From positions 120,001 through 152,000 of the forward strand of contig NC_021219.1 of assembly GCF_000392435.1 (NCBI RefSeq): 32,000 bases of DNA, given 5' to 3'. Within the stretch, counting starts at the first letter, position 1; every line of letters begins with the position of its first letter. Source of the DNA: Candidatus Saccharimonas aalborgensis. GTDB lineage: Bacteria > Patescibacteriota > Saccharimonadia > Saccharimonadales > Saccharimonadaceae. This document shows positions 9,673-27,591 of this stretch, in pieces. Both the position numbers and the translations under genes were made by a program. The notes under the pieces were generated by a model, which saw only the letters and a list, made by a program, of their open reading frames with translations, made no database searches and was not told the origin of the DNA.

Positions 9673-9829
9673 GCTACTTAGAAGCAGTGTCATATAGTGC
9701 CAATGTATATAATTGAACATAACCAAAAACTGCTAGTTTACGCCGGATTCTCACTGTTAAACACATAAGGGTCGTATCACATGGTTATGGTATGGAGTTA
9801 TAGGAGTAATTCATTGTATAATATACCTC

Positions 9830-11755
9830 ATGACTAATCTGACAAACATCCTCGCAAAATTGACTGCACTCATCGAAAAAAACAAAGCATACATCATAGA
9901 CGGATCCTTAAATCGAAACCTACTTGCAGCTGATGCTCGTAAGTATGACCCTGAACTACTAAACCTTCTGCAGAAGGATGCTGAACTCAAAGAACACTTC
10001 TTCGCTGCTACTGATGGTGGGCTTGTATTCAAGAAAGATGTTTTCTTGCAGTTCATCATGAACAAAGAGTTTTTGCCGGATAGCTACACAAAGTACAAGA
10101 TCAAGATCGGGCTTGGAGCTGACGACGGATCACTTTTATCGGAGAGTGGAGATGTCGTTCTAAATTGGCCATATAAAGATGCGATCCTTGAAGGCGGACA
10201 GGACAAAGAAGATCAAAAACGAAGCGAAGTCTTTTTCAATGAGGTACTAGCCCCAGATCAAATTACACGCCTGTTCGATGATAAAGTTTTCACTAATTGG
10301 AAACGATACGATAAAGACGGCGAACGCGATCTCGATGAACTTAAAGACGATGACAATTTAATCATCAAAGGCAACAACCTTGTCGTGCTTCATAGTCTCA
10401 AAAAGCGATATGCCGGTAGGGTGAAAATGATCTACATAGATCCGCCTTACAATACCGGAAATGATAGTTTCGGGTATAACGACCGCTTTAATCATGCGTC
10501 TTGGCTAACATTTATGCGGAATAGGCTCAATGCAGCAAAAATGCTTCTCGCTAATGATAGTGTGCTAGCTATTCAGATCGACGATGATGAGCATGCGTAC
10601 CTCAAGGTTTTAGCAGACGAAATCCTTGGAAGAGATAACTTTGTAAAATCGATTGCACTCAAGATGTCTACAGCCTCGGGTGTTAAAACTGCTCACCGTG
10701 ACCGCACTATTTTGAAAGAGAAAGAACATATTCTCATATACAAGAGAGGTACTTTAAGGGTTACACCAGAATACATTAAGGCTGATGAGTGGGATAGTGA
10801 ATTTCAATTCGTACTCGAAGGAAAAGAATCTGGTAAGTATAAAGTTATAAAACTTAGTGAATACTTAAAGCAGAATAATATCGATGCAAATGCCAACAGT
10901 GACGAATTCAAAGAGTTCGTGATAAAAAATGCCGATATCATCTGGAGACGAGCATTCATCAGGGGTTCATGGAAGGAAAAATCACTTGCGAATCCTAGTG
11001 AAGTGATAGTCAATAAGGGAGAAAACGGGATCGCATACTACTATGGTGGTCGGCAAATGTACTTCTATAAAGAGAAATTTCATGAATTTTATGATGAGAA
11101 TACAAAAAAGTTTGGCCCGAGCAGTTTACTTGGAGATCTGTGGGCGGATATTAATACTGGGCGTATTTTTAATGAAGGCGGAGTAGAACTAAGAAACGGT
11201 AAAAAAGCAGAACAGATTCTAGCAAGGCTATTGCGAATGTTTACAAAGCCTGGCGATCTGGTGATGGATTATCATTTAGGCTCAGGAACTACCTCAGCCG
11301 TTGCTCATAAGATGGGTCGGCAATACATTGGCATTGAACAGCTCTACTATGGCGATAACGATCCTATGAATCGATTACAGAATGTCATTAACGGTGATCA
11401 GTCAGGCATTAGCAAAGGTGTAAACTGGCAAGGAGGGGGCAGCTTTGTTTATGCGAACATTATGAACAATTCGAACAAGTTCCGAAAGCGAGTTGAGGCT
11501 GCTATGAATGATTCAGATTATTTAGCTCTGTTAAAGGAAGCGACTTCGTCTTCATTCCTGAGTTACCGTGTTGATCCTAAGAAACTCAACGAAGAAGAAT
11601 TCCGGAAACTAAGTTCCGCTGAAAAACGACGGCTCCTACTTGAACTTATCGATAATAATACTCTCTACGTAAATTATGAAGACATCAATGATCCTCTATT
11701 CAAGGTGAGTGAAAAAGATAAAGAGTTTAACAAGAAGCTTTACGAAAAGAATTAA
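9830..11755 (+). CDS. mod: Type III restriction-modification methyltransferase (Mod)
   Basis: Catalytic motif IYIDPPYNTGND followed later by the AdoMet motif DYHLGSGTT (beta-class order). It lies directly upstream of res. Confidence 0.9.
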   Translation: MTNLTNILAKLTALIEKNKAYIIDGSLNRNLLAADARKYDPELLNLLQKDAELKEHFFAATDGGLVFKKDVFLQFIMNKEFLPDSYTKYKIKIGLGADDGSLLSESGDVVLNWPYKDAILEGGQDKEDQKRSEVFFNEVLAPDQITRLFDDKVFTNWKRYDKDGERDLDELKDDDNLIIKGNNLVVLHSLKKRYAGRVKMIYIDPPYNTGNDSFGYNDRFNHASWLTFMRNRLNAAKMLLANDSVLAIQIDDDEHAYLKVLADEILGRDNFVKSIALKMSTASGVKTAHRDRTILKEKEHILIYKRGTLRVTPEYIKADEWDSEFQFVLEGKESGKYKVIKLSEYLKQNNIDANANSDEFKEFVIKNADIIWRRAFIRGSWKEKSLANPSEVIVNKGENGIAYYYGGRQMYFYKEKFHEFYDENTKKFGPSSLLGDLWADINTGRIFNEGGVELRNGKKAEQILARLLRMFTKPGDLVMDYHLGSGTTSAVAHKMGRQYIGIEQLYYGDNDPMNRLQNVINGDQSGISKGVNWQGGGSFVYANIMNNSNKFRKRVEAAMNDSDYLALLKEATSSSFLSYRVDPKKLNEEEFRKLSSAEKRRLLLELIDNNTLYVNYEDINDPLFKVSEKDKEFNKKLYEKN

Positions 11756-11773
11756 CGAGGATTATCGATCATT

Positions 11774-14422
11774 ATGAATAATAATCCTCAAGACAAAATG
11801 CTTAAAAGTGACGAATACGATATCCTGAGTCGATTTCAGGGTGGTTTTACGACAGTACCTGAGCACATATCACTCAATCTTCGCCATGAACTAAGGCCAT
11901 ATCAGACGGAAGCACTCGGACGGTATTTGCATTACTACGATAGCGACAAGAATCGTGATCAAACTCGTGGCATGCAATTGCTTTTCAACATGGCAACCGG
12001 ATCCGGCAAGACGATGATCATGGCGGCACTTCTGCTTGATCTATATAAGCGTGGACAGAACAAGATCGTATTCTTTGTGAATACCACCAACATCATCGAG
12101 AAGACACGAGAGAATTTTCTCGATTCGTCTTCTAGTAAGTACCTCTTCGCTGAAAAGATTGTCATCGATGGTGAAGTTGTAAACGTTCGTGAACTAACTG
12201 ACTTTTCTGATGCACGTGATGATTCGATCAATATCGTCTTCACGACTATCCAAGGGCTACACACTACGCTCAAAGCACCTAGAGAAAACAGTTTAACGTA
12301 TGACGACCTGACTGAACATGATCTCGTACTGTTAAGCGATGAAGCACACCATTTGAACGGTGATACCAAGAAGCTAAACGCTGATGAGAAAAAAGATAAT
12401 ACTTCATGGGAGAGTACGATTAATGCCGTCATGAACGGCAACCCTATGAACCATCTCTTTGAGTTTACGGCAACGATTGATCTTGATGATAAAGAGATCT
12501 TCTACAAGTACAAGAACCGTATCATCTACCGCTACGACCTCCGAGCATTTCGTGAAGACGGCTACAGCAAAGATGTCTGGATCTATGACGTTGCAGCCGA
12601 TCTCATGGATCGTGCTATTCAAGCAATGATCATCTCACAGTACCGTAAGAAAATCGCATTGGCAGCTGGCGTCTGGCTCAAGCCGGTCATTCTCTTTAAG
12701 TCATTCAGGATCGCAGATGCAAATGACTTCTATGATGAATTTGTACTGAAGGTTAAATCAATTTCACATACTGACATTGATAAACAACGTAAGATCGCAA
12801 CCGGGATTCTCGAACGTGCATTTGCGTACTTCGATCAAGAAGGTATCAGTGGATCCGATCTTGCAGATGAACTTCGTTTCGACTTTGCGGAAGAACGACT
12901 AATATCAGTCACTAAAAAAGCTATCACCCCAGAAGATCAACAACGACTCAATTCACTGGAAGATCGGGACAATGAGATCCGTGCAGTATTTGCTGTTGAC
13001 GTGTTGGATGAAGGCTGGGATGTCTTGAACCTCTTCGATATCGTTCGCCTGTATGACACACGTGACAGCAAGAACGGACGACCCGGTAAGACAACGATGC
13101 GAGAAGCACAGTTAATCGGCCGTGGAGCCAGGTATTATCCGTTTGTATTAGATGGAGATGAAGAGAAACGATTCGTTCGGAAGTTTGATGACAATGAGCT
13201 AGAACCACTCCGTGTTATTGAGCAACTGCACTATCATTCAGCAAGTAATCCAAAATACATCCAGGAGATTCGTCAGACACTTCGTGAGACGGGTATTATG
13301 CCGGATATCAACACGGTTAAGCGTGAATTAAATCTGAAAGACTCGTTCAAGGAATCTCACACTTACAAAACGGGTGTCGTCTGGAAGAACGAGCAAGTTG
13401 AAGCCACTGCTATTCCTGAGCAGACGGTATTCCTCGGAGGAGAAGGATACAAACTGCAAGATATTTATGAGATATCTGTTCCTGTAGGCATCTCCCACGA
13501 CCGTCAGATCTTTGTAGATAATAGTGATCTCGAGGCACAAACAAGAAGCGAAGAGCATACCTTCAATGTTACGTTCTCAAGATTCCCTAAGAACCTTGTA
13601 CGTCATGCGGTGGATCGTAACAAAAAACTCCGATATGACATTGTCTCAGAAAAGATTAGTGGTCTCGTTAGTCTTGAAGGCTTCTTGACCGGAGATAAGC
13701 AGCTAGGCGGCGTTAAGATCGCCGTAACAGCTGGAGTTGATCGATACGAAAAACTTACCACAGACGAGCGTCTGTTCATCGTAGAGAAGCTGCTCGCATT
13801 AGTTGCAAATGATATTGCACTGAATGAAAAGAGCTTCGAGGGCACAAAAGAATTTAAGCCTCATCCAATCAAGGAAGTGTTTGATGAACGCATTCTTAGG
13901 AATTACACGATTACAAACAATGATGCGGAGTTCGGCATCTCACAATCTCACCCGGGTAGCTATGATCAACGAGGATCACAATACTATCTCGATCTTTCAA
14001 AAGAAGATTGGCATGTATACGATGACAACTTCGGAACATCTGAAGAAAAGAAACTTGTTCTACTCATGAAGAAACTCATCGAAGATCTCCGTGAAAAATG
14101 GGACGATATCTATCTTGTTCGCAATGAAGGATCATTCAAGATCTACGAATTTGGCAAACCTGGACGTGCTTTCGAACCTGACTATGTGCTGTTTGCAAAT
14201 GACAAACGCAACGCTTCAGTTAGCTGGCAGATATTTATTGAGCCTAAAGGTAACCACTTGATTGAGCACGATGCATGGAAACAAGACTTCTTATTGAAGC
14301 TCAGTAAGGAAGCAAAGATAGTCGGTGAAGACGCAGATACCCGAGTGATCGGAGTACCATTCTTTAATGGTGATATAGAAAAACAATCACACGTCATTGA
14401 AGAAGCTTTAAAAGCACTATAA
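11774..14422 (+). CDS. res: Type III restriction enzyme, Res subunit
   Basis: Helicase motifs NMATGSGKT and LLSDEAHH. The C-terminal PD-(D/E)xK-like nuclease motif is EPDYVLF...IFIEPKG. Confidence 0.9.
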   Translation: MNNNPQDKMLKSDEYDILSRFQGGFTTVPEHISLNLRHELRPYQTEALGRYLHYYDSDKNRDQTRGMQLLFNMATGSGKTMIMAALLLDLYKRGQNKIVFFVNTTNIIEKTRENFLDSSSSKYLFAEKIVIDGEVVNVRELTDFSDARDDSINIVFTTIQGLHTTLKAPRENSLTYDDLTEHDLVLLSDEAHHLNGDTKKLNADEKKDNTSWESTINAVMNGNPMNHLFEFTATIDLDDKEIFYKYKNRIIYRYDLRAFREDGYSKDVWIYDVAADLMDRAIQAMIISQYRKKIALAAGVWLKPVILFKSFRIADANDFYDEFVLKVKSISHTDIDKQRKIATGILERAFAYFDQEGISGSDLADELRFDFAEERLISVTKKAITPEDQQRLNSLEDRDNEIRAVFAVDVLDEGWDVLNLFDIVRLYDTRDSKNGRPGKTTMREAQLIGRGARYYPFVLDGDEEKRFVRKFDDNELEPLRVIEQLHYHSASNPKYIQEIRQTLRETGIMPDINTVKRELNLKDSFKESHTYKTGVVWKNEQVEATAIPEQTVFLGGEGYKLQDIYEISVPVGISHDRQIFVDNSDLEAQTRSEEHTFNVTFSRFPKNLVRHAVDRNKKLRYDIVSEKISGLVSLEGFLTGDKQLGGVKIAVTAGVDRYEKLTTDERLFIVEKLLALVANDIALNEKSFEGTKEFKPHPIKEVFDERILRNYTITNNDAEFGISQSHPGSYDQRGSQYYLDLSKEDWHVYDDNFGTSEEKKLVLLMKKLIEDLREKWDDIYLVRNEGSFKIYEFGKPGRAFEPDYVLFANDKRNASVSWQIFIEPKGNHLIEHDAWKQDFLLKLSKEAKIVGEDADTRVIGVPFFNGDIEKQSHVIEEALKAL

Positions 14423-14621
14423 GCCCGGCGAAGATGCATGGGGTATGGATAATCCAAAATATACTATTTTGTATTTTTAGCCCTGTAACTTCCATACACC
14501 GCTATTGATAAGGCTTATTCCTCAGGTATAGCCTACCGTACCCCACCATGATCCAGATAATCACACTAAAATAAACCTACTCTATATATTTAGGTTCAAC
14601 ATTCTTTTCGTTAGTTATGAA

Positions 14622-14822
14622 TTACTTCTTGATCGGTTGAATATCCGGACTCGGAGCTCTTCGTGCTCGCTTACGTTCAGGGCCGTTTAGCATTATTTCA
14701 CGCTTCTTGTTTTGTTTTTTGAGATCATCAACACTCTTTGCTACCGGAGTAGTAAATACTTTATCATCCCAGTTTGATGTATCTGTAGGCGAAGTTTGAG
14801 GTGGTAGTTTGTTATCACTCAT
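14622..14822 (-). CDS. Hypothetical small basic protein (66 aa)
   Basis: ORF only, with no recognisable motif. The C-terminus is basic. Confidence 0.3.
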   Translation of the reverse strand: MSDNKLPPQTSPTDTSNWDDKVFTTPVAKSVDDLKKQNKKREIMLNGPERKRARRAPSPDIQPIKK

Positions 14823-14987
14823 TAACTACTATTATAACAAAAAGTCTATGCTGGAGGCACGATCAGACCTGACAGGATCCGCCAGCTTCTTATTCAAGGC
14901 CTCAATGCCTTTTTTGATGTTATTAAATTCCAACAGTAGTGCATGCAACTTCATAATTGCAGGTTCGTTCAAAGTACCTTCTCGGCA

Positions 14988-15037
14988 GCCAAGAAAAAAC
15001 TCTGTGAGTATCTATACTTACAGAGTTTTTTCTTGGC
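14988..15037. terminator. Perfect 18-bp hairpin with A/T runs (bidirectional terminator)
   Basis: gccaagaaaaaactctgt pairs with acagagttttttcttggc. Confidence 0.65.
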
Positions 15038-15149
15038 TCATTTTTACGTCTTGCCCGAACTCATTTTGCGACCAAATGTGAGAAATGAGACTTTTCGGCG
15101 GGTCGCCCCCGACCCGAGCCGCCGAAAGTCTCATAAACGGAATTATTTT
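15035..15149 (+). repeat. Arm A of the inverted repeat flanking the TauE gene
   Basis: 15035-15078 and 15122-15149 match the reverse complement of 16021-16093 with a few mismatches. The extra ~43 nt (15079-15121) form their own hairpin, atgagacttttcggcgg/ccgccgaaagtctcat. Confidence 0.8.
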
Positions 15150-15249
15150 CGAAGAACAATGTGCAATTGTTTTATTTTTTCGTACCCTACTTGAGTCTAA
15201 GATTTTGTCATATAATCGTATATATGACCACATCAGATAAGAGGTTGTC

Positions 15250-15987
15250 TTGGATATAACGCTTCTATTAACTTTTTTTGTTTCGTTTATTGCAAGTGTT
15301 CTGAGTGGTATAGCAGGCGGTGGTGTCAGTTTTGTTACAACACCTTTCTGGCTTGTTATTGGTCTAACGCCCGCACAAGGGGGTGCGACTGGGGCATTTA
15401 TGGCTACCGGGATGTCCCTAGGCTCACTGGCAACCTTTAGGAAATCTGGTCATATACCAAAAGATAGAAAACTTTTTTATATTTTAGCTGTAGTGACGCT
15501 TATTGCATCTATACTAGGAGTGTTTGTAGTTCCGAAGATAGACATAAGTGTGTTTCGGACGGTACTAGCCATTATCACACTAGCCGCTTTACCCCTGCTA
15601 TTCGTAAAGCCTAGCACAAAGTACAATTTGAAAAAGTATAAAAAACTTGGATTAGCGTTAGCTGCTGGACTAATGGTAATTGGCTCTATAATCATAAGTG
15701 GAGCGTTTTCAATTCTTTTTACTTTGGTACTTGTAGTGTTCTTTGGCATGTCAGTCTTGCAAACAACTGCCATGAAGCGGCTTCTGTTTTTCCTACAATC
15801 CGTTGTGCTGCTCATTGGGTTTGCCGTACAAGGCTATCTGCTTCTACAATATGCGGCTGTAGCCTTTTTCGGGGGTATACTCGGCGCACACATAGGAACT
15901 AAATATGCAGTAAAAAAGGGTGAAAACTTCGCAAAGTATGCACTTGCAGTAATGGCATTGGTTGGAGCAATAGCGCTGCTGGTATGA
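15250..15987 (+). CDS. TauE/SafE-family anion exporter
   Basis: ~8 TM segments with a GIAGGGVSFVTTPF motif. It has a TTG start, an AAGAGG RBS 5 nt upstream and a TATAAT box upstream. Confidence 0.75.
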   Translation: MDITLLLTFFVSFIASVLSGIAGGGVSFVTTPFWLVIGLTPAQGGATGAFMATGMSLGSLATFRKSGHIPKDRKLFYILAVVTLIASILGVFVVPKIDISVFRTVLAIITLAALPLLFVKPSTKYNLKKYKKLGLALAAGLMVIGSIIISGAFSILFTLVLVVFFGMSVLQTTAMKRLLFFLQSVVLLIGFAVQGYLLLQYAAVAFFGGILGAHIGTKYAVKKGENFAKYALAVMALVGAIALLV

Positions 15988-16020
15988 TCGTTCCGGCCAG
16001 TAGACAGTCATAGTAACAAC

Positions 16021-16093
16021 AAAATAATTCCGTTTATGAGACTTTCGGCATTTGGTCGCAAAATGGGTTCGGGCAAAGGCGTAAAAGTGAGCC
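16021..16093 (-). repeat. Arm B of the inverted repeat flanking the TauE gene
   Basis: Reverse complement of arm A, read directly from the sequence. Confidence 0.8.
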
Positions 16094-16161
16094 ACGCTAA
16101 GAGCTCACCAATAGGTGGGCTTTTTGCGTGGCTCGTTATTAGAATCGAACACCCGAGTGAA

Positions 16162-16290
16162 GCATTCGGGGTGAAGATTGCCTGCGGCAATCTGCAAGGC
16201 GATGTCACCGACGAGCTATGCTCATCGGCCCGACTCGCGAGGTCGGGTTAGTGTAACCGAATCCTCCAACTCGCTCAAGCATAACCAACA
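16162..16290 (+). repeat. Second copy of the module seen at 6831-6950
   Basis: 16162-16208 aligns to 6831-6878. It differs by only two substitutions and the hairpin loop (tgc versus cgtc). The next hairpin (16209-16227) has the same geometry as 6879-6897 but a different sequence. Confidence 0.7.
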
Positions 16291-16351
16291 TCGAACTCCA
16301 CTATTAGAGTTCTTTTGATTTGCGGTTGTTTATCTATTATTAAATTCTAGA

Positions 16352-16769
16352 ATGAGTAGCATGGCAAAAAGCATTACTCAGAAATTAGATTACGGCTGCG
16401 GTGTAGCTTGCTTTGCATTTGTCTGCAATATGAATTTTGATGAGGCAATTAAATTCCTTGGAAGAGAATATAGCGTAAAAAATGGATGGCGACCTAGCGA
16501 TTTATCGAAGGAGCTAAACAGCTTTGGTTTCAATTACAAAAACTACTACGTGCGCAAAAAGGTTCATATTGAATACCCGCTAAATTCTATCGTATTGATC
16601 GAGAAATCACAGCAGTACTGTTGGTCATTACTTAGTCTTAACACCGAAAGGCTGGATGGATCCTTGGATAAATTTGCCCAAAACGAACGATATTCGCAAA
16701 GCAAAGTCAGGATTTAGAAAAAATCTACCAGGAAAAGCTATGTATGCATTGATACCAATTTCTTCCTAA
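16352..16769 (+). pseudogene. C39-like papain-fold cysteine peptidase domain protein, interrupted by a +1 frameshift
   Basis: Frame 1 encodes LDYGCGVACFAFV (catalytic Cys region). The +1 frame from about 16605 encodes VGHYLVLTPKGWMDPWINLP (catalytic His region) and stops at 16769. Confidence 0.5.
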
Positions 16770-16784
16770 AGCTCACGGCTATTC

Positions 16785-17630
16785 TCAGCGCTTGCGACGA
16801 AACGTGGGCATCATCTCAGGAATTGATTCTTTGACGCGGACAATATGCGACCGCACGGGTCGGCCAAAATAGTTACCGACGCTGGCGCCGGCGGCAATCG
16901 ATAGCGCAACACTGAGCGCCGTCAGGAGCAGCATGTTGCCTTCTGCGACCGATGATGCGGAGGGCTTATCGACAAACTGCATTAACCCGTTGTAGAGCGC
17001 GAGTCCCGGCACCAACGGCACAACACCGGCATCGATGAGAGCGATCGATGGCGAACGATACACACGAGCGATGATTGCCCCCGCAAATCCGACTAATACT
17101 GCTGCAACACCGTTTGCCAGTGCCTCGCCACTTGCAGCGGTCAACATATAGACGCCCCATCCCAACCCACCGATTATTCCCGCCCACACGACAGCAGCGA
17201 GTTTCGACTGCATAAACAACGCCCAACCCGCTGCAATAACAACCGCACCCATCACTTGCCAAAATGGATCACCGAGTGCCACAGGATCAGGTGATACAGC
17301 AATTTTACTTCCTGCCGCGTGAGCGACCAAAAGCCCGATCACAATCCCCATCACAATTCCGGCAGTCATCACAAATGTCTTCATGAAACGCGCACTCGCC
17401 GTCACATAGAACTCGTCGATCGCATCCTGAGCAGTCGCCACCACCATAAGGCCAGCCACCAGCATGACAATCCCCCCGACAACGATGAGCGTGGGATTAA
17501 CGCCAACAAACGGCCAGACGCCGCGATTGCCAAGCTCCACAACCAACGTTGCACTCATAGTAATCGTAAACGAAGATATCGCTTGAACAAAAAAACTAAG
17601 CACCTGCCGGGCTTCAAGCCAGCGAATCAC
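16785..17630 (-). CDS. ThrE-family (threonine/serine exporter-like) membrane protein, C-terminal part
   Basis: ~9 TM segments, Gly/Ala-rich. The GTG start overlaps the upstream ORF by 17 nt. Confidence 0.65.
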   Translation of the reverse strand: MIRWLEARQVLSFFVQAISSFTITMSATLVVELGNRGVWPFVGVNPTLIVVGGIVMLVAGLMVVATAQDAIDEFYVTASARFMKTFVMTAGIVMGIVIGLLVAHAAGSKIAVSPDPVALGDPFWQVMGAVVIAAGWALFMQSKLAAVVWAGIIGGLGWGVYMLTAASGEALANGVAAVLVGFAGAIIARVYRSPSIALIDAGVVPLVPGLALYNGLMQFVDKPSASSVAEGNMLLLTALSVALSIAAGASVGNYFGRPVRSHIVRVKESIPEMMPTFRRKR

Positions 17631-18150
17631 GGTCGACCAAGCATCCTACCAAAAAAGTTGTCACCACAACAACCCACGAATTGGTAAATAACATCGTCGC
17701 ACCAGCGGTCACGCTCGCGTTTCCGATCATCGTCAGCCAACTTGGGTAGGTTGGCTTGACAGCAATTATTTTTTCGAATCTCGCTTCCGCCGAATCGAGA
17801 CTGAGTCCTCCGCGAATACTCCTCACCAAATCTTGCATCTCTTGGACAATAAGATTGTTGGGATTTTGCATCGAAACGGTGCGAATGAGCGTCAAGGGTT
17901 CTCGATCAATACCGCGATCCTGCGATGCCATGATAGACGTAGCGTTGATATCAATATGCACCCGCCGCTGACAAAGTGTCTCGGTTATATCCAGTGCGCT
18001 ATCTACTACATCGTGTGCCGACACGCCGTGACAAAGCAGCTGCTCGGCAATACGCATCGTCAGGCGTAGTGCCCGCATATTTGGTGTCAGATCACGACCA
18101 ACTTTTTGGGTATCAGTAGCAGCAGGAGTGATTGCCCTCTCATAAATCAT
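17614..18150 (-). CDS. ThrE-family protein, N-terminal (DUF1212-like) part
   Basis: A soluble N-terminal region (LRLTMRIAEQLLCHGVSAHDVVDSALDIT) is followed by the first TM segments. The ORF ends within what is normally a continuous domain. Confidence 0.65.
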   Translation of the reverse strand: MIYERAITPAATDTQKVGRDLTPNMRALRLTMRIAEQLLCHGVSAHDVVDSALDITETLCQRRVHIDINATSIMASQDRGIDREPLTLIRTVSMQNPNNLIVQEMQDLVRSIRGGLSLDSAEARFEKIIAVKPTYPSWLTMIGNASVTAGATMLFTNSWVVVVTTFLVGCLVDRDSLA

Positions 18151-18170
18151 ACTCTCTAGTATACCGATAG

Positions 18171-18665
18171 TTACTGTTCGCGAGAACCCCTCGATGATGT
18201 TGACCGATGAGGCAATTCACGAATAACGATAACGACTGCGCAAACGAGAAGTCCAGTAAACAGCACCATCCACGTCCCGACGGGGAGAAGTAGCGTCCCT
18301 CCAAAGAGACCTGACTCAGCAGTGTAATTTCCTTGAATATTGAGAATGAGGGCGAGGAACAACCACACTATGGCTGTCGCAAGTGTTGCTACCCTGGATA
18401 CTGCCCACCATCGGTAAGCAAGTTTCATCGAGAGTAGAAACGGCAAGGAAAGAACTTCCAGGAGTGGTATCGAGAATGCTAACACTGTCGCCGTTATCTT
18501 GCCCCCCGCCAAGCCATATGCGGCCGTTATATCGGCAAATTGCTCGTAGGTAAATAACTGCATAATCGCCAAAAAAAGGTAGACACCGGCAAGCGTGAAT
18601 CCACGCCAATAAGCAGGATTACCGAAGAAAACACTAGGGAATACGGACCGAAAATAAGTCTTCAT
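18171..18665 (-). CDS. MauE/DoxX-like 4-TM membrane protein
   Basis: Four TM helices. The start is set at MKTYFRS (18665), 6 nt downstream of a TATACT box. Confidence 0.45.
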   Translation of the reverse strand: MKTYFRSVFPSVFFGNPAYWRGFTLAGVYLFLAIMQLFTYEQFADITAAYGLAGGKITATVLAFSIPLLEVLSLPFLLSMKLAYRWWAVSRVATLATAIVWLFLALILNIQGNYTAESGLFGGTLLLPVGTWMVLFTGLLVCAVVIVIRELPHRSTSSRGSREQ

Positions 18666-18796
18666 ATCCTTAGTATACTGCTGTCTTGCACGGCAAACTG
18701 TTGTTTTTTTGTACATACTGCTTGCGCTTTTTGAAAACAGAGTGTATTGTACTGATAGCGAACGTTACAAAAACAAACACCACAAAAAAATCTTGT

Positions 18797-19205
18797 AGAC
18801 GCCGAGGTCGCGTAGGGCAATGCGCGTGACGGCCGCGTTGAGTTGCCCCTGGGAGCGGTAGGCTCCCTGGAACAGTCGGGTGCGGTCGGCGCGGTCACTG
18901 AAGATGCGAAACATCAACTACCTCCGTGGTCGGGGATTTGGACACTACAATAGTAACATAAAAATTGTGAGTAGTCAAGTAACCCTCGATTCAGTCTCCT
19001 CTCCTCCCCCGACAGACAGTTGGCCCTGATGGGCCAAGGCCCGCCAAGGCGAAGGCTAATCAGTTTGCGGCGGGCCGGTTGTCTGGAGTGGGGAAGTGGG
19101 GAGACTCGGGTACGTGGCAATAAGGGTACGCTCATTGACACCAGAGGCCGAACAGTGTACACTTGTGTGAAGTGATAATACTATGTTAAAAGAGTAAGTA
19201 AAGGA
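18797..19205 (-). repeat. Left arm of a perfect 409-bp inverted repeat (a truncated copy of the GC-rich element)
   Basis: It is the reverse complement of 21674-22082. The ORF-track peptides across both arms are identical. This arm ends at about codon 40 of the small ORF. Confidence 0.9.
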
Positions 19206-19217
19206 AGTATTCATTTT

Positions 19218-19631
19218 ATGCTCGCAATTCGTTTGCAACGGTTGGGCCGCAAAGCCTATCCTGTCTACCGTCTCGCTGTTCAGGAAGCACAGCGTCATCC
19301 TTCGAGCGGCCGTGTGGTTGCCTACGTCGGAACCTACAACCCCCACACAAAAGAAGTTAGTATTCAGACAGAAGCTGCTCAGAAGTACCTCGATAACGGT
19401 GCTCAGCCAACACCTCGAGTCGTGAAGCTTCTCAAAGATGCCGGTGTGACATTGCCAAAGTGGGTCAAAGAATTTGATGGTTCAAAGGCAAAATCAGTCA
19501 AAAAAGCTGATAAGCTCCGCAAAAACCAGCCAAAAGAGGAAGTGACTGAAGTAGAGCAAGAAACTCCTGAAGTTCCTGCCGACGAAGTTGTGGCTGACAC
19601 TACTGTTAGCGAAGAACCAACTGCCGAATAA
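19218..19631 (+). CDS. rpsP: 30S ribosomal protein S16 with a Lys/Glu-rich C-terminal extension
   Basis: MLAIRLQRLGRKAYPVYRLAVQEAQRHPSSGRVVAYVGTYNP is canonical S16. Confidence 0.92.
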   Translation: MLAIRLQRLGRKAYPVYRLAVQEAQRHPSSGRVVAYVGTYNPHTKEVSIQTEAAQKYLDNGAQPTPRVVKLLKDAGVTLPKWVKEFDGSKAKSVKKADKLRKNQPKEEVTEVEQETPEVPADEVVADTTVSEEPTAE

Positions 19632-19655
19632 GTTACACTAATGCAAACGAACACA

Positions 19656-19686
19656 CTACCTCTCTCGCTCAGAGAGGTAGTTTTGT
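19656..19686 (+). terminator. Intrinsic terminator after rpsP
   Basis: Stem ctacctctc/gagaggtag followed by TTTTGTATT. Confidence 0.7.
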
Positions 19687-19761
19687 ATTATGCCTTCAGC
19701 AGCGTGGTACAATGAAATATAGCGATATTAACAGTGAGACCAGAACAGGAGGCTAGTGGGC

Positions 19762-20166
19762 ATGTCAACTATCGACCAGCAATTTGTAGAATATATCGTC
19801 AAATCACTTGTAGAACATCCCGATGATGTGATCGTTGATCGTATCGTCGATGAAAAAGGGGTGCTTCTGACGCTGACCGTCAATCCAGAGGATCTCGGCA
19901 GAGTGATTGGACGCCGCGGCGTTACAGCCCAAAGCCTGAGAACACTTCTCAGGGCACTCGGAACAAAAAACACCGCTCGTTACAACCTAAAGATTGTCAA
20001 CAATGACGACCCGAATGATTCAACGGTTATTTCATCTGATGATGCAACTGATGACGCTGTGGAAAATGTGACCGAGGATACTGTGGAAAACGAGTCAGAA
20101 AAAGAGAGTGATTTCGCAAAAAAGTCTCGCCAAGAGCTTGCGGAACTCGATGATCTCGATATATAA
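19762..20166 (+). CDS. KH-domain RNA-binding protein (UPF0109/YlqC-like) with an acidic C-terminal tail
   Basis: VEHPDDVIVDRIVDEKGVLLTLTVNPEDLGRVIGRRGVTAQSLRTLL matches the family. An AGGAGG RBS lies 9 nt before the ATG at 19762. Confidence 0.85.
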   Translation: MSTIDQQFVEYIVKSLVEHPDDVIVDRIVDEKGVLLTLTVNPEDLGRVIGRRGVTAQSLRTLLRALGTKNTARYNLKIVNNDDPNDSTVISSDDATDDAVENVTEDTVENESEKESDFAKKSRQELAELDDLDI

Positions 20167-20264
20167 TCATAAACAGTTCATGCGAGAATCTTGAACTTGA
20201 ACGACAAAAGCTCTTGCGAGCAAACCACATGTGTTACTGACCCAAGAAGAGATAAAGACCTGTC

Positions 20265-20588
20265 TCACAGGATACGGGTGGAAAGTATGTAGGTTGCGAC
20301 AGTCAAGATCGTGACGACCACTCCCCCTACCAAAAAGGTGACGATATGTCCTGATCGAGCGTGCTCATGCTGATACTCATGCGCCCCAAGCTCGCCGCGT
20401 GTCTGTTCTGTGTCAATAGGAGGGTTTGCAAGGGGACCAGCAACAAGATGCTGGTTGACGACTTGTTCGTCTGGCAAGTCGTCGGGTTTGACGTTATCTG
20501 TGAGCGGCTGAAGCGTCAAATCGCGCTCTTGAGCAGCAAGCACCTCCGCACTTGGCATGTCGTCACTCGTCGATAACTCACTGTCCAT
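20265..20588 (-). CDS. Hypothetical acidic tail-anchored protein (107 aa)
   Basis: A single C-terminal TM helix (IVTFLVGGVVVTILTVATYIL). A TAGTAT box lies 7 nt before the ATG. Confidence 0.5.
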   Translation of the reverse strand: MDSELSTSDDMPSAEVLAAQERDLTLQPLTDNVKPDDLPDEQVVNQHLVAGPLANPPIDTEQTRGELGAHEYQHEHARSGHIVTFLVGGVVVTILTVATYILSTRIL

Positions 20589-20655
20589 ATTGTTTATACT
20601 ATACCACGAAAGTAGCCCGCCGAGCGAGCGAATCCTGAGGCCATGTTGGCTCGGA

Positions 20656-20814
20656 TCAGGCTACAATCGACGGGCGTGCCCGTAGGGGGGGGTGAGTGGG
20701 GGTCAGTCGTCGCTGTCGACTCGTGCATCCAGCCTCGCGCGGTGCTCTGATGCGATGATCAGAGACGCCAGCGCGGATGAAGGCGACAATGACGATAAAG
20801 AAAATGCTGCTCAT
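20656..20814 (-). CDS. Candidate 52-aa small hydrophobic peptide in a GC-rich insert
   Basis: My own translation gives MSSIFFIVIVAFIRAGVSDHRIRAPREAGC... An AAGGAG RBS lies 6 nt upstream and a TTGCTT-17-TATAAT promoter lies at 20853-20881. It is below the ORF-track length cutoff. Confidence 0.3.
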   Translation of the reverse strand: MSSIFFIVIVAFIRAGVSDHRIRAPREAGCTSRQRRLTPTHPPLRARPSIVA

Positions 20815-20943
20815 ACCAGCTCCTTACGGGTTGGGACTGTCAGGAATTGACAGTAATATCATTATAGCATAAGAACAATAAAAAAGCAATACATCGGATG
20901 CAACCACTAGCATAATTTGTCAATAGGTGCTATGATACTTTTT

Positions 20944-21597
20944 ATGAAAAAGTTCCAAGTCATCACTCTTTTTCCCGAGATGTGCGGAGGTGTGTTTGGC
21001 AACAGTATGATGTGGAAGGCCCAAAAAGACGGACACGTTACACTTGAGACAATACATCTACGAGAGTTTGGTATTGGCCCTCGCAAACAAGTTGATGACA
21101 CCCCCTATGGAGGTGGTGATGGCATGCTGTTGATGGTAGAGCCACTGTGGAACGCCATTATGCAGGCAAAGAGCCTTGATCCTTCGGCAAAGGTGCTCTT
21201 GATGACACCGAGAGGCAGTCGATGGAAGCAGGCCGATGCCCGCAGCTACAGCGAGTCAACGCACGGGTATATTTTTGTATGCGGACGCTATGAGGGCTAT
21301 GATGAGCGAATTATGTCGCTCGTCGACGAGGAAATAAGCGTCGGTGACTACGTGCTGACCGGTGGTGAGCTGCCAGCTATGACGATTATCGACAGCATCG
21401 TACGCCTTATTCCGGGTGTTCTCGGTGGTTCTGAGAGCGCGGCGGTAGAAAGTTTTGTTGATGGGAAAACGCTGGAGTATCCTCAATATACACGACCAGA
21501 AGTTTGGCAGGATATGCGCGTACCCGATGTCTTACTAAGTGGGCATCATGGTCAGATTGCTGCCTGGCGGGCTAAGCATAGCAAGAAGGCAGGCTAA
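20944..21597 (+). CDS. trmD: tRNA (guanine37-N1)-methyltransferase
   Basis: Motifs VITLFPEM, DDTPYGGGDGML, CGRYEGYDERI and GDYVLTGGELPAM. The start is set at MKKFQVI (20944), 7 nt after a TATGAT box. Confidence 0.92.
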   Translation: MKKFQVITLFPEMCGGVFGNSMMWKAQKDGHVTLETIHLREFGIGPRKQVDDTPYGGGDGMLLMVEPLWNAIMQAKSLDPSAKVLLMTPRGSRWKQADARSYSESTHGYIFVCGRYEGYDERIMSLVDEEISVGDYVLTGGELPAMTIIDSIVRLIPGVLGGSESAAVESFVDGKTLEYPQYTRPEVWQDMRVPDVLLSGHHGQIAAWRAKHSKKAG

Positions 21598-21772
21598 TAA
21601 AATGGCAATACCCCGCGAAAAGCGGGGTACCACACAATATATGTTGTGGTGGATATATCGTAGAGCGATATGCTCCTTTACTTACTCTTTTAACATAGTA
21701 TTATCACTTCACACAAGTGTACACTGTTCGGCCTCTGGTGTCAATGAGCGTACCCTTATTGCCACGTACCCG

Positions 21773-21886
21773 AGTCTCCCCACTTCCCCACTCCAGACAA
21801 CCGGCCCGCCGCAAACTGATTAGCCTTCGCCTTGGCGGGCCTTGGCCCATCAGGGCCAACTGTCTGTCGGGGGAGGAGAGGAGACT
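21773..21886. other. GC-rich three-way-junction structure (mirror copy at 18993-19106)
   Basis: A long imperfect outer helix (agtctcc...cagac pairing with gtctg...ggagact) encloses ggcccgcc/ggcgggcc and ttggccc/gggccaa hairpins. The expressed strand cannot be told from the sequence. Confidence 0.35.
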
Positions 21887-21900
21887 GAATCGAGGGTTAC

Positions 21901-21929
21901 TTGACTACTCACAATTTTTATGTTACTAT
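21901..21929 (+). promoter_or_regulatory. Promoter TTGACT-17 nt-TACTAT for the GC-rich small ORF
   Basis: Read directly from the sequence. It is followed by a GGAGG RBS at 21954-21958. Confidence 0.5.
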
Positions 21930-21964
21930 TGTAGTGTCCAAATCCCCGACCACGGAGGTAGTTG

Positions 21965-22189
21965 ATGTTTCGCATCTTCAGTGACCGCGCCGACCGCACC
22001 CGACTGTTCCAGGGAGCCTACCGCTCCCAGGGGCAACTCAACGCGGCCGTCACGCGCATTGCCCTACGCGACCTCGGCGTCTGTGACGTCGAGCGCGTGG
22101 GCGAGCATGACCTCCGGGTCACGCTCTACTCCTGCGTCGAGTGGAGCGACTGGCTCGCCGAGCAGATTGCGGCCGAGTTTGCCGCCTGA
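21965..22189 (+). CDS. GC-rich hypothetical protein (74 aa)
   Basis: MFRIFSDRADRTRLFQGAYRSQG... Third codon positions are almost all G/C. It has a GGAGG RBS 6 nt upstream, its own promoter and its own terminator. Confidence 0.5.
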   Translation: MFRIFSDRADRTRLFQGAYRSQGQLNAAVTRIALRDLGVCDVERVGEHDLRVTLYSCVEWSDWLAEQIAAEFAA

Positions 22190-22211: not shown

Positions 22212-22248
22212 GGGTACCGGCCGTTTGCCACACAAACGGCCGGTACCC
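22212..22248. terminator. Perfect 16-bp GC-rich hairpin between the small ORF and the convergent rnc gene
   Basis: gggtaccggccgtttg pairs with caaacggccggtaccc. Confidence 0.7.
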
Positions 22249-22272: not shown

Positions 22273-22986
22273 TTATGAATCGCGTTTTTCGTACGCCTTT
22301 AGGGCAGCACGTGCCGCCTGTTGCTGTGCAAACTGCTTACTTGGGCCAGTACCCTTGCCCATCAAGACACCACCGACATAGGCACCGAGAGTAAACTCTT
22401 TATCGTGATCGGGACCTTCTTCACTAATGACTTTATAGACAGGGGTCGCGCCATCAAGACGCTGCGATACCTCTTGGAGGTGCGACTTTGGGTCACGCCA
22501 CGAGCCTTCGTCGAGGATTGATTCGAGTTTGCTGAGGATATGGGTATGAATGAAATCGCTGGCTGCCTGATACCCTTGGTCGAGATACAGAGACCCAATA
22601 GTTGCCTCAAAGGCGTTGGCGAGTATCTGTAAACGGGCGCGTTCAGAACCATTTTTTTCGCCCTTGCTCATGCGTACCAGCGGCTCATAGCCGAGACGCA
22701 TACCCGCCTCACCAATGCTTTCGGTGCGTACGAGTGCCGCCCGCCAACTTGTCAGGATGCCCTCTGGTTCCGAGAATGTCTTGAACAAATAGTCTGTCAC
22801 CACCAGCTCCAGCACCGCATCGCCCAAAAATTCAAGCCGCTCGTTGTGCTCGCTGACGCTCTTACGGTGCTCGTTGACATAGCTGCGATGTGTCAATGCA
22901 GTGATAAAAAGTTGAATATCATTGTAGGTAATCCCCAACGTTTCCTTGGCAAACTGTACATATGGTCCAATCGGCATTCCACTCAC
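22273..22986 (-). CDS. rnc: Ribonuclease III
   Basis: Signature NERLEFLGDAVLE plus a C-terminal dsRBD. Confidence 0.92.
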   Translation of the reverse strand: MSGMPIGPYVQFAKETLGITYNDIQLFITALTHRSYVNEHRKSVSEHNERLEFLGDAVLELVVTDYLFKTFSEPEGILTSWRAALVRTESIGEAGMRLGYEPLVRMSKGEKNGSERARLQILANAFEATIGSLYLDQGYQAASDFIHTHILSKLESILDEGSWRDPKSHLQEVSQRLDGATPVYKVISEEGPDHDKEFTLGAYVGGVLMGKGTGPSKQFAQQQAARAALKAYEKRDS

Positions 22987-22988: not shown

Positions 22989-23483
22989 CTACAGCCCCTC
23001 CTGTCGAATACGTTTCTTGGCAAGCAACATTAGCTTTCCTATATCTTCATATTCAATGAGATCAAGTGCTTCGGCAAAGGAAAACCACTTGATACCATTC
23101 ATCCATTCTTCTTTCTGTATCGCATTGGTATCGCCCTTTGCTCGCACGAGATATATTTGCGTTGTCATGAGAACAAGTCGATCGAGCCGACGATAGCGAA
23201 AATGTATCTTACCTAACCAACCGAGCATATCAACATCTGTCAGGCCGGCCTCCTCGCCAATCTCGCGACGTGCCGTCTGCAGCGCCGTCTCGCCTTCTTC
23301 GATATGACCTTTTGGAATTGTCCATCGATCTTTTGCATCCTGAATCAATAGAATCTCTAAGTCACCCGTCTTACCATGACGAAATACAATCCCGCCGCTA
23401 GTAGGCTCGCGGACGATTTCTTGGATGGATGGCTTGTGTTTACCTAAATATTTCTTAAAACGATCAAACTTTGGCGCCGGCAT
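22989..23483 (-). CDS. Nudix hydrolase (164 aa)
   Basis: Nudix box GHIEEGETALQTARREIGEEAGL. The start is set at MPAPKF (23483). The longer track ORF runs through nusB in another frame. Confidence 0.85.
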   Translation of the reverse strand: MPAPKFDRFKKYLGKHKPSIQEIVREPTSGGIVFRHGKTGDLEILLIQDAKDRWTIPKGHIEEGETALQTARREIGEEAGLTDVDMLGWLGKIHFRYRRLDRLVLMTTQIYLVRAKGDTNAIQKEEWMNGIKWFSFAEALDLIEYEDIGKLMLLAKKRIRQEGL

Positions 23484-23925
23484 TGTCTGGTTTCTCCTCG
23501 ACAAGCGTACGATACGCAGTCCCCAGGACTCCGTTGATAAACTTGCTTGAGTTATCAGAACCAAACGCTTTAGCGAGCTCAACCGCCTCGTTGATGGCGA
23601 CCTTTGGCGGCACTTTGTCGCTGCCAAAAAGTAGTTCGTAGAGTCCGAGTCGCAGAACTGATCGGTCGATGCGGGCAATCTGCTCAATTGGCCACTCTGG
23701 AGCAATCGGCTGGATGGTTTCATCCAGGTGTGCTTGCTCCTTTACGACACCCTCTACGAGAGATTTGACAAATGCCGTATCATCGATGGCTGATTCGTAA
23801 CGCTCAAGATTTCGCGCCAATATCTCATCGAGATCAACACTTGGATCCTCTGACTGCGTACGAAACTCATACTCGTAGAGAGTTTGGAGAGCGACGATAC
23901 GCCCAAGATGACGATTTGAGGCCAT
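23464..23925 (-). CDS. nusB: Transcription antitermination factor NusB
   Basis: MASNRHLGRIVALQTLYEYEF... and LAINEAVELAKAF-like motifs. Confidence 0.88.
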   Translation of the reverse strand: MASNRHLGRIVALQTLYEYEFRTQSEDPSVDLDEILARNLERYESAIDDTAFVKSLVEGVVKEQAHLDETIQPIAPEWPIEQIARIDRSVLRLGLYELLFGSDKVPPKVAINEAVELAKAFGSDNSSKFINGVLGTAYRTLVEEKPDNAGAKV

Positions 23926-24657: not shown

Positions 24658-27531
24658 TTAGACAACGATACTCAATAATTTGTGTTTGATGTAGATAATC
24701 TTTTTTGGCTCACCACTGAGATAGCCCGCTACAGCATGATCAGCAAGCGCCAGCGCCGTAATCTCTGCCTCATCTTTGTCGACACCGACAGTGAGTTTAG
24801 CACGAACCTTGCCATTGACTTGCACCACAATCGTCATCGTATCGCTCACCAAATATTCGTCATTCCATGCAGGCCACCCAGACTCTTCAAGCGAAGATTC
24901 GTTGCCGAGCTGTTGCCATAGCTCAGCGCCAAGGTGGGGAGCCATCGGTGCGATCAGGCGGGCGAGCGCATCAACAGCTTCTGCCCACTCTGGCCCCGCG
25001 AAGCCATCCAGCTTGTACTTGTAGAGTTCGTTGACGTATTCCATCAATGCGGCAATTGCCGTGTTGAAGCTTAATCGACGATAATCATCAGTTACTTTCC
25101 TGATAGTGCGATGCGTCAAAGAGCGGACTGCAGTCGCCTGCGCGGAAGTGCCTTCATGATCGCTCTCCAGGTATTCCTGTGTCAGTGTCCAAGTACGATT
25201 GAGAAATCGATAGATCCCGGCGATTCCCCGACTACTCCAGCTCGAGTTTTCGTTGATTGGCCCGAGAAACAGACAAAATACTCTGAGAGCGTCGGCACCA
25301 TACCCCTGATCGATAACATCCAGCGGATCGACGACATTGCCGAGACTCTTGCTCATCTTTCGTCCATCCTCGGCACCTATGAGCCCGTGATACACCAGTT
25401 GTTTGACAGGCTCATCGAACTCAACTAGTCCCATGTCGCGAAAAACGTGTGTCCAGAAGCGTACATAGAGCAGATGAGCGACTGCGTGATCGCCACCAAC
25501 GTACATGTCGAGTGGTGCCCAAAAATCCGCTTTTTCTTTCGACCATGGTGCATGCTCATTGAGCGGATCAGTGTAGCGAAAGAGGTACCACGACGAACAC
25601 GCGTAGCCATCCATCGTATCGGTCTCGCGCTGTGCCGGACCGCCACAGGCTGGGCACGTGGTATTAACCCAATCTGTTTCGCGTGCAAGTACAGACTTTC
25701 CATCACCTTTTGGTGCATGATCTTCGACAGGCGGCAACAACACCGGCAACTCATCGGCCGGTACGGCTACCGCACCATCCTTTTCGCAGTGAATAATCGG
25801 GATCGGCGCGCCCCAATACCGCTGACGGCTCACCAGCCAGTCACGCATCTTGTAGGTTATCTTTGCACGACCTATCCCCTGTTGTTCGAGCCACGCAACG
25901 ACTTGCTCGCGCGCTTCATAACTTGTCATTCCATCAAATATACCGGAATGCACCAGTACGCCTTCGTTTGCGAACAGATTTTTTTCTCCCTCAAGCCATC
26001 GCAAAATATGCTGAAGCTCAGAAATGGGTTTTAACGTGGGCAAGACGTCTTTTTTCACCCACATGGGCTCAAAGTCTTCATGAGCTTCACGCTGAAGCTC
26101 GACGGAATCAAGTGAGTTGAGACGAAAGCGCACAACAGTCGTCAGAATATTACGGTTGACATCCTTGTGGGCAGCATAAAACTTACTGTTTATCTTTGCG
26201 GGCATGGCCTCAATAAACGTCATATCGGTATAACCGGTTTCCTCTGCGATTTCTCGCCGCGCCGCTTCTTCGGCCGTTTCGCTATCCTCGACACCGCCCA
26301 TGACAAATCCGTGCCATGGCAGCTTATTCCACTTGAGCGTCAGGTACTCGCCATTTGTCGGGTGTTCGATAATACACATTACGACATTTCTATCAGTGTC
26401 TTGTTTGCCTTTTTGAGGGGGATTTTCCTGATCATAGAGGCTTTCGGCGATGACCTGAACAATCGGTAAATCAAACTTCGATGCAAATTCATAGTCACGG
26501 GTATCATGAGCTGGCACCGCCATGATTGCACCCGTGCCATAGCCCCAAAGCACATAGTCGGCTACCCATATCGGGATACGTTCACCGTTCGCAGGATTGA
26601 TGGCATAGGAGCCCGTTGGAACACCCGTTTTTTCTTTGCCCTCGCTCATTCGCTCTATTTCTGAACGCTTCAGAGACGCATCAATATATGACTTTACTAC
26701 CTCGTAAGTATCAGCGTTCGTAAGCTCAAGGGCAAGTGGGTGTTCGGGAGCAAGCACGAGAAAGGTCGCACCAAATACCGTATCGGGGCGTGTCGAAAAA
26801 ACGGTTAATTGTGCTTTGGTTTTTTCGACAGAGAAGGTAATCTCTGCCCCCTGGCTCTTGCCAATCCAGTTTTCCTGCGCGGTCTTGATTTTATCTGGCC
26901 AATTGAGAGCCGGCAACTCCTCAAGCAATGCCTCGGCATAATCAGTAATCTTGAAAAACCACTGTTTCATCGATTTCTTCACTACTTCGTTTTCGCAGCG
27001 CCAGCATTTGCCGTCGATCACCTGTTCGTTCGCAAGTACGGTCTTATCGACAGGACACCACCACTGCATCGATTCTTTTTGATATGCTAAGCCACGCTTG
27101 AAAAATTCAGCAAAAATCCACTGCGTCCATTTATAATATGACGGATCGCTGGTGTTGATTTCTCGCGACCAGTCGAGGCTTGCTCCCATGCGCACAAGCT
27201 GATTCTTGAAGCTAGCGATATTGTAACGCGTCGTTTCGGCAGGTGGTTTGCCAGTCTTGATCGCATAATTTTCTGCAGGCAGACCAAAGGCATCCCATCC
27301 CATAGGGTTAAGTACGTTGTAGCCCTGTTGTCGATGAAACCGCGCTACCGAGTCGACAATGGCATGCTCAAAGGCGTGCCCAGTATGCATGCCGGCCCCG
27401 CTGGGGTAAGGAAACATGCAAGAAATATAGTATTTATTTTTGGCCGAATCCTCGACAACATCATAGCGATGGTCGTTCGCCCATTGTTGTTGCCATTTTG
27501 GCTCGATACTTGCAGGATCATAGCGCTTCAT
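24658..27531 (-). CDS. leuS: Leucine--tRNA ligase carrying an inserted Nudix domain
   Basis: Segments PYPSGAGMHTGHA (HIGH-type), AVPAHDTRDYEF, RDWLVSRQRYWGAPIP and KMSKS. The start is set at MKRYDPASIEPKWQ (27531), 7 nt after a TATACT box. Confidence 0.92.
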   Translation of the reverse strand: MKRYDPASIEPKWQQQWANDHRYDVVEDSAKNKYYISCMFPYPSGAGMHTGHAFEHAIVDSVARFHRQQGYNVLNPMGWDAFGLPAENYAIKTGKPPAETTRYNIASFKNQLVRMGASLDWSREINTSDPSYYKWTQWIFAEFFKRGLAYQKESMQWWCPVDKTVLANEQVIDGKCWRCENEVVKKSMKQWFFKITDYAEALLEELPALNWPDKIKTAQENWIGKSQGAEITFSVEKTKAQLTVFSTRPDTVFGATFLVLAPEHPLALELTNADTYEVVKSYIDASLKRSEIERMSEGKEKTGVPTGSYAINPANGERIPIWVADYVLWGYGTGAIMAVPAHDTRDYEFASKFDLPIVQVIAESLYDQENPPQKGKQDTDRNVVMCIIEHPTNGEYLTLKWNKLPWHGFVMGGVEDSETAEEAARREIAEETGYTDMTFIEAMPAKINSKFYAAHKDVNRNILTTVVRFRLNSLDSVELQREAHEDFEPMWVKKDVLPTLKPISELQHILRWLEGEKNLFANEGVLVHSGIFDGMTSYEAREQVVAWLEQQGIGRAKITYKMRDWLVSRQRYWGAPIPIIHCEKDGAVAVPADELPVLLPPVEDHAPKGDGKSVLARETDWVNTTCPACGGPAQRETDTMDGYACSSWYLFRYTDPLNEHAPWSKEKADFWAPLDMYVGGDHAVAHLLYVRFWTHVFRDMGLVEFDEPVKQLVYHGLIGAEDGRKMSKSLGNVVDPLDVIDQGYGADALRVFCLFLGPINENSSWSSRGIAGIYRFLNRTWTLTQEYLESDHEGTSAQATAVRSLTHRTIRKVTDDYRRLSFNTAIAALMEYVNELYKYKLDGFAGPEWAEAVDALARLIAPMAPHLGAELWQQLGNESSLEESGWPAWNDEYLVSDTMTIVVQVNGKVRAKLTVGVDKDEAEITALALADHAVAGYLSGEPKKIIYIKHKLLSIVV
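25978..26400 (-). other. Nudix-fold insertion inside leuS (about residues 395-535 of the track ORF)
   Basis: Nudix box GGVEDSETAEEAARREIAEETGY is encoded at 26230-26298. Confidence 0.8.
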
Positions 27532-27591
27532 TGGCATTAGTATACCAAAATCGCCCCTGATTGTCAGGGGCGATCGTTGCATCTGTCTTAC

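Follow-up and report, generated by a model that had tools for sequence, protein, structure and literature searches.

In plastid genomes, isomers flip-flop between inverted repeats, while in intramolecular replicative transposition of the IS26 or Tn3 type a second copy of the element appears in inverted orientation at the target and the intervening DNA is inverted. Invertible promoter switches are known from fimS, hin and the invertons. Unstable flip-flop inversions between long inverted repeats have been described in Staphylococcus aureus (PMC6778178), and inversions accompanied by inverted duplications of unique sequence at their breakpoints have been explained by a staggered-break model (Ranz et al., 2007; PMC1885836). 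Here we examine an inverted repeat in the reference genome of Candidatus Saccharimonas aalborgensis, a wastewater bacterium and the source of the first closed Saccharibacteria genome. The repeat lies at 18797-22082 of a 32,000-nucleotide (nt) stretch of that genome, referred to below as the window (NC_021219.1, positions 120,001 to 152,000), and brackets the ribosomal-protein gene rpsP together with trmD. We consider it probable that this arrangement is a recent, strain-specific inversion with breakpoint duplication, carried by one strain of the species, in which the bracketed segment is inverted. It is an ordinary chromosomal rearrangement of a known kind and not a new genetic system.

A repeat search returned two arms of 409 nt that are 100% complementary and spaced by 2468 nt (Table 1), and this pair is the sole inverted repeat of at least 30 nt in the window, where we estimate that chance alone would give exact inverted matches of no more than about 14-15 nt. 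A preliminary description of the locus, made from its letters alone, had reported a perfect 409-bp inverted repeat, which the search bears out; the figure holds as an arm length, with the correction that one nucleotide (T) can be assigned either to the duplicated piece or to its target site, so that the piece itself measures 408-409 nt. Gene calls likewise agree with the contents given there (rpsP, a KH-domain gene, small open reading frames (ORFs) and trmD), the left arm does stop 12 nt 5' of the rpsP ATG and carry part of its ribosome-binding site (RBS; the AAGGA lies inside the arm), and the TTGACA-17-TACACT site is present in the arm where Table 1 places it. What that description missed is the inversion of the enclosed segment relative to every relative, the identity of the arms, and the match to inversion with breakpoint duplication.

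The duplicated piece, which we call X, consists of the first 118 nt (40 codons) of a gene encoding 74 amino acids (aa) and of the 290-bp divergent promoter region that this gene shares with rpsP. From its outer end each arm reads through the 5' part of the 74-aa gene, the promoter-like site of that gene, a hairpin rich in GC and about 140 nt long, then the promoter-like site of rpsP and the partial rpsP RBS. The two divergent promoter-like sites are conserved, and each is present twice: the second copy of the 74-aa promoter-like site lies at 18978-18950 on the minus strand, aimed at the 164-aa and thrE genes, and that of the rpsP site lies at 21744-21716, also on the minus strand and antisense toward the spacer 3' of trmD.

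To place the repeat in the context of the species, relatives were found by exact-protein look-ups, and blocks were compared among same-species contigs by BLAST coordinates. We denote the rnc gene with the 3' part of the 74-aa gene as A, the 164-aa gene with thrE as B, and the segment rpsP-KH-107aa-trmD as S, with a prime marking a block in reverse orientation. In 18 other distinct contigs of the species, among them the closed genomes CP064959.1, CP065015.1 and CP065017.1, X is single, S points the same way as its flanks, and S joins B directly. Their gene order runs from leuS to nusB, nudix and rnc in the forward direction, followed by the 74-aa gene in reverse, X, rpsP, KH and trmD in the forward direction (with the 107-aa ORF reversed between KH and trmD), and finally the 164-aa gene and thrE, again forward. 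The block order of the window is B'-X-S-X'-A', with S flipped relative to both flanks and a second, inverted X at the old S-B boundary; the inner end of the right arm and the trmD-distal spacer meet in a novel junction. The deposited annotation follows this inverted gene order, with proteins AGL61841 to AGL61852 running in the order of the window. When X' is deleted and S is flipped, the ancestral state so rebuilt is colinear with the closed genomes and passes through the old junction without a gap.

At base level, the reference junction reads …GATATGC-T-ACAAGATT… and that of the window …GATATGC[TCCTTT…GGCGTC]T-ACAAGATT…, which corresponds to an insertion of 408 nt plus one ambiguous T into the spacer between trmD and the 164-aa gene, with zero bases lost. 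The comparison with the reference revealed no target-site duplication at the new junctions, and the reference spacer between trmD and the 164-aa gene contains no X-like sequence. The junctions are non-homologous, with 1 nt of ambiguity. The preliminary description had inferred that the duplication was very recent, and this is supported by the single X of the 18 contigs, by two contigs that have no second copy (L014, at 99.9-100% identity to either side of the breakpoint, and L016, at 100%), and by the colinearity that returns once the event is undone.

The novel junctions were also sought in other assemblies. Among all fetched loci, the S-X' junction occurs only in contig L015 and the B-X junction only in contig L034, both of them Logan contigs from run SRR29904087. 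L015 matches window positions 19176-21703 at 100% and comprises S flanked at either end by exactly 30 nt of arm. L034 is 11,850 bp long; the part of it that was fetched matches 13171-18826 at 100%, and it ends exactly 30 nt into the left arm. Contig ends that lie k-1 = 30 nt inside the repeat are, by our reasoning, what a graph with k=31 would be expected to yield at a true repeat. Similarly, contigs of a second run, SRR29904083, match in gene layout and end at the same points, 106 nt past trmD and 161 nt short of the 164-aa gene. The contigs also share private markers of the window's strain, namely the frameshift in thrE and the loss of 63 nt behind the KH gene. The ordinary S-B junction, with the window allele at the breakpoint, is found in L014 (APMI01) and L016, which belong to a sister strain. 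L014 keeps the 63-nt segment that the window and L015 are without, and is counted as a different strain on that account; since L014 and L016 have the ordinary junction, the event is recent, younger than the split of two near-identical strains.

Several points weigh against a real inversion with breakpoint duplication. Exact scans for both junctions in two large collections, genome_contigs and metagenome_contigs, gave no match, and we therefore take the variant to be rare; SRR29904087 and SRR29904083 may not be independent of the 2013 data; the finished genome is the only sequence that spans a whole arm, which the other contigs do not; the orders A-X-S-X'-B and A-X-S'-X'-B share the same four junctions; an inverted S sets a ribosomal-protein operon opposite all of its neighbours, an arrangement that selection usually disfavours; and, to our knowledge, a 409-nt staggered break followed by end joining is not established in bacteria.

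The empty scans also speak for an artefact of assembly, finishing or amplification, in which X would truly be single and one arm and its junctions chimeric, as do the ordinary S-B junction in contigs with the window allele (L014 and L016) and the fact that chimeric inverted joins are a known class of artefact. This is countered by the recovery of both junctions at 100% in Logan contigs, which come from a different assembler and two runs and end exactly k-1 = 30 nt inside the repeat, and by the exact division of the old spacer between the two junctions, without loss, which random chimeras would not produce. Moreover, L014, one of the contigs with the ordinary junction, is a different strain that keeps the 63 nt, and the repeat lies within a long contig rather than at a contig end. 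An assembler artefact is unlikely, and we regard an artefactual origin of any of these kinds as very unlikely. The caveat in the preliminary description that the repeat might be artefactual is thus largely answered by the recurrence of both novel junctions in separately built contigs from two runs; of the related assemblies, which it had proposed to examine, the relatives do not have the second arm and the Logan contigs have both junctions.

The shared junctions bear on the orientation of S. Because no other contig spans an arm, the inverted orientation is read from the deposited assembly and only from there, and the inverted duplication could be real while S is un-inverted in the cell, or inverted in a minority of cells. 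The true order would then be A-X-S-X'-B, that is, the ancestral order with a 408-bp inverted copy of X after trmD, and the orientation in the assembly would be arbitrary or based on weak pairs. Consistent with such an order, the junction sets are the same for both orientations and the separate contigs stop 30 nt into the arms; in addition, a single event would suffice, and the rpsP operon would stay co-oriented with all its neighbours, as in the relatives. On the other hand, the order in the deposited finished genome is the inverted one, which its annotation follows, a finished assembly can be assumed normally to use paired reads that span 409 bp, and the data contain no evidence against the order as deposited. 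We hold an un-inverted S to be unlikely.

We infer the mechanism of origin, the capacity for flipping and the consequences for transcription from the anatomy of the locus. The ancestral A-X-S-B would have become A-X-S'-X'-B, of which the window is the reverse complement, and an illegitimate origin is suggested because the junctions are non-homologous, with a single ambiguous nucleotide, no duplication of the target site and nothing lost. In one route, the change would have occurred in a single step, as an inversion with breakpoint duplication via staggered breaks or replication template switching; in another, X would first have been inserted as an inverted duplicate and S would then have been flipped by homologous recombination between the arms. 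The second route and template switching would give the same product as staggered breaks, and the routes are not separable here. Intramolecular replicative transposition was considered and rejected, as X has no transposase, terminal repeats, target-site duplication or other copies, its hairpin core being absent elsewhere from the window and the fetched loci.

With identical arms, recombination between them could re-invert S, and flip-flop of S by homologous recombination, as proposed in the preliminary description, is plausible. A stronger version, in which the essential rpsP-KH-trmD block flips freely in living populations and isomers coexist, each of them fully expressed and the whole made in one breakpoint-duplicating inversion, seems doubtful to us; if true, it would represent a natural, orientation-neutral invertible ribosomal-protein operon, made by a breakpoint-duplicating mechanism so far documented mainly in eukaryotes. 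No recA gene is present in the 32-kb window. The window also has an RmuC-family gene at 2091-3329 (minus strand); RmuC in E. coli is linked to limiting inversions at short inverted repeats.

Since each arm has both divergent promoters, rpsP and the complete 74-aa gene would keep their native 5' regions in either orientation, and since neither the four junctions nor the local promoter-gene pairings differ between the orientations, the arrangement would not be an expression switch. The event left several by-products: a truncated 49-aa ORF; a duplicate 74-aa promoter which, together with this ORF, faces the 164-aa and thrE genes, of which thrE is itself frameshifted in the strain; and an orphan copy of the rpsP promoter, directed at the terminator of trmD. 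The hairpin that follows trmD would halt antisense transcripts from the duplicate rpsP promoter before they reach trmD.

A programmed invertible switch of the inverton or shufflon kind, which would control the ribosomal-protein operon or the 74-aa gene through a site-specific recombinase, is suggested by a gene-bearing segment between inverted repeats that contain promoters and by the presence of two large serine recombinase genes in the window. One of these recombinase genes (7038-8834) lies at a distance of about 10 kb and the other (30546-31937) at about 8.5 kb, both at the borders of tRNA-linked islands, and among the called genes no invertase or recombinase gene lies in or beside 18797-22082; involvement of a site-specific recombinase was rejected on this distance and context. 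Furthermore, no relative has the second arm, so that the repeat does not represent a conserved device; each arm is a 409-bp duplicate of an ordinary stretch of gene and promoter, unlike the short sites of recombinases; and flipping between identical arms would alter no promoter-gene pairing. We give a programmed switch next to no credence.

Table 1. Features of the inverted-repeat locus, in window positions.
Feature	Position	Strand	Remarks
164/181-aa membrane protein gene	18171..18716	-	directly downstream of trmD in relatives; here downstream of truncated 74-aa copy
Truncated 74-aa copy, 49 aa (L336_0133 / AGL61844)	18765..18914	-	crosses novel junction 18796/18797
Left arm, X	18797..19205	.	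outer end adjoins 164/181-aa gene side, inner end rpsP; carries truncated 74-aa ORF copy
GC-rich hairpin element, ~140 nt	18974..19114; second copy 21765-21905	.	sits between divergent rpsP and 74-aa promoters
rpsP promoter-like site, TTGACA-17-TACACT	19135..19163	+	
Enclosed segment S (rpsP, KH, 107-aa ORF, trmD)	19206..21673	+	inverted versus both flanks relative to all relatives
rpsP	19218-19631	+	Ribosomal_S16
KhpA-type KH gene	19756-20166	+	
Strain-specific 63-nt deletion site	20235..20240	.	terminator hairpin behind KH gene removed
107-aa ORF	20265-20588	-	called as gene in relatives too
trmD	20932-21597	+	
Hairpin and T-run 3' of trmD	21605..21633	-	scores as minus-strand terminator
Right arm, X'	21674..22082	.	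exact reverse complement of left arm; outer end continues into rest of 74-aa gene, as in relatives
74-aa-gene promoter-like site, TTGACT-17-TACTAT with TG	21901..21929	+	hexamers kept in all relatives aligned
Complete 74-aa orphan gene, L336_0140	21965..22189	+	RBS GGAGGT, ~64% GC
Terminator-like hairpin 3' of 74-aa gene	22212..22248	+	
rnc (RNase III)	22273..22986	-	conserved flank beside complete 74-aa gene

The GC skew of S is positive in a surrounding backbone that is negative, which fits a recent flip, with the reservation that skew also tracks gene direction. Identity to relatives falls from 99.8-100% to 95-97% at the 63-nt deletion site, a step that suggests a recombination mosaic. In the flank, thrE (16785-18150, minus strand), which encodes 455 aa in relatives, is split by its frameshift into ORFs of 178 and 281 aa, and the 178-aa product is seen only in this genome and in runs SRR29904087 and SRR29904083. 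The most variable part of the S block is the spacer between KH and trmD, with its ORFs of 107/97/39 aa, and in CP064959.1 and CAXWIU010000004.1 an IS30-like gene (HTH_38) lies between KH and trmD (L001:11274-12259 and L002:11754-12743).

The truncated copy of the 74-aa gene retains 40 native codons, followed by 9 new codons and a stop, and its 49-aa product is identical to the GenBank hypothetical protein L336_0133 [Candidatus Saccharimonas aalborgensis]; an exact look-up of this junction ORF in the contig index gave no match. The full-length protein is genuinely encoded, as its homologues share its length and differ from it by conservative substitutions. It has no Pfam family, and among 1.84 billion representatives it falls only into its own 50% cluster, with no relatives beyond this clade. 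An AlphaFold model is confident (pLDDT 88), with PDB matches that are weak and generic ferredoxin-like (best E 0.035), and we describe the gene as an orphan with a predicted ferredoxin-like fold.

The GC-rich hairpin in the arms folds strongly (z ~ -4.5) and behaves as a present/absent indel: it occurs in close relatives and is cleanly missing from the more distant relatives L044, L045 and L049. Across its four variants there are 0 compensatory pairs, and the arms match no Rfam family at the gathering threshold (the whole window yields only tRNAs), with only chance-level matches at E<=10 over the arm. A conserved structured RNA in the arms was rejected on these grounds, namely the indel in distant relatives, the lack of compensatory changes and the lack of an Rfam match. 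Similarly, the possibility that the hairpin is a multi-copy miniature inverted-repeat transposable element was rejected, as no further copy of its core is present in the window or among the fetched loci. The hairpin is also where several short-read contigs break off or have N gaps, and an apparent insertion within it in L007 and L024 was discarded as non-biological, being a scaffold gap (Ns) and foreign sequence. One metagenome contig (L006:9400-10000; ERZ27268723 k119_151193) has rpsP with the inner 203 nt of X, but upstream of these a different context, with secE-nusG, rplK, VanY and a 78-aa ORF. The breakpoint corresponds to window position 19003, where the hairpin has its base, and the join is either a second rearrangement at the same spot or a chimeric contig.

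Elsewhere in the window, a low-GC island (~40%) of 9 kb at 7051-16089 adjoins a tRNA-Gln gene (6976-7050) and is missing from related contigs such as L033. Its genes include the large serine recombinase already mentioned (7038-8834), the type III restriction-modification genes mod (9830-11755) and res (11774-14422), and a TauE exporter, and the 5' half of the tRNA-Gln gene has a 34-nt exact duplicate at 6682-6715. The second, serine-recombinase-like ORF (30546-31937, minus strand) overlaps a tRNA-Gly gene (30647-30722) and has Recombinase and zinc-ribbon domains, with no resolvase N-terminal domain detected in it; at its place relatives have a resolvase/recombinase gene of 518-553 aa. In the leucyl-tRNA synthetase (LeuRS) encoded at 24658-27582 on the minus strand, the editing domain is shortened (model positions 1-146 of 185) and is followed immediately by an inserted NUDIX hydrolase domain (aa 401-516). 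This architecture is recorded likewise for LeuRS of relatives, and a separate NUDIX gene (22989-23486) lies 1.2 kb from the LeuRS gene.

The rearrangement reveals no new regulatory or defence system. It does account for an odd local gene order in this reference genome and for the spurious 49-aa "gene" L336_0133, whose annotation it corrects. It also provides a clean, datable bacterial example of a long inverted repeat born from unique sequence, for which ancestral and derived states are both available at near-100% identity, and may serve as a test case for template switching versus break-and-join, and for the speed with which such repeats flip or are lost.

Compared with the systems outlined at the beginning, the locus resembles the invertible promoter switches in that a promoter-containing region is tied to inverted repeats, and differs from fimS and hin in having no adjacent invertase, far longer arms, a repeat that is not conserved and an orientation that is neutral for promoter targets. 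The topology of the product is the same as in inversions of the IS26 or Tn3 type, but X is here part of a host gene and a promoter region. With the flip-flop inversions of long repeats it shares a long, identical inverted repeat that is a sufficient substrate for RecA-type recombination, and a segment that is inverted relative to relatives (PMC6778178), whereas here the segment is tiny, at 2.5 kb, the arms are a fresh duplication and not copies of an insertion sequence, ribosomal RNA operon or prophage, and no phenotype switch is predicted, since the local gene-promoter pairings are unchanged. The staggered-break model was developed for Drosophila chromosomes and non-homologous end joining (PMC1885836), whereas the present segment measures 2.5 kb and belongs to a bacterium with a reduced genome, the duplication affects only one of the two breakpoints, and template switching is an equally good candidate. 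In the remaining respects the locus follows the inversions which that model describes: there was no pre-existing repeat at the breakpoints, X was ancestrally a single-copy, non-repetitive piece of gene and flank, its duplicate lies inverted at the other breakpoint, and the resulting topology is A-X-S'-X'-B.

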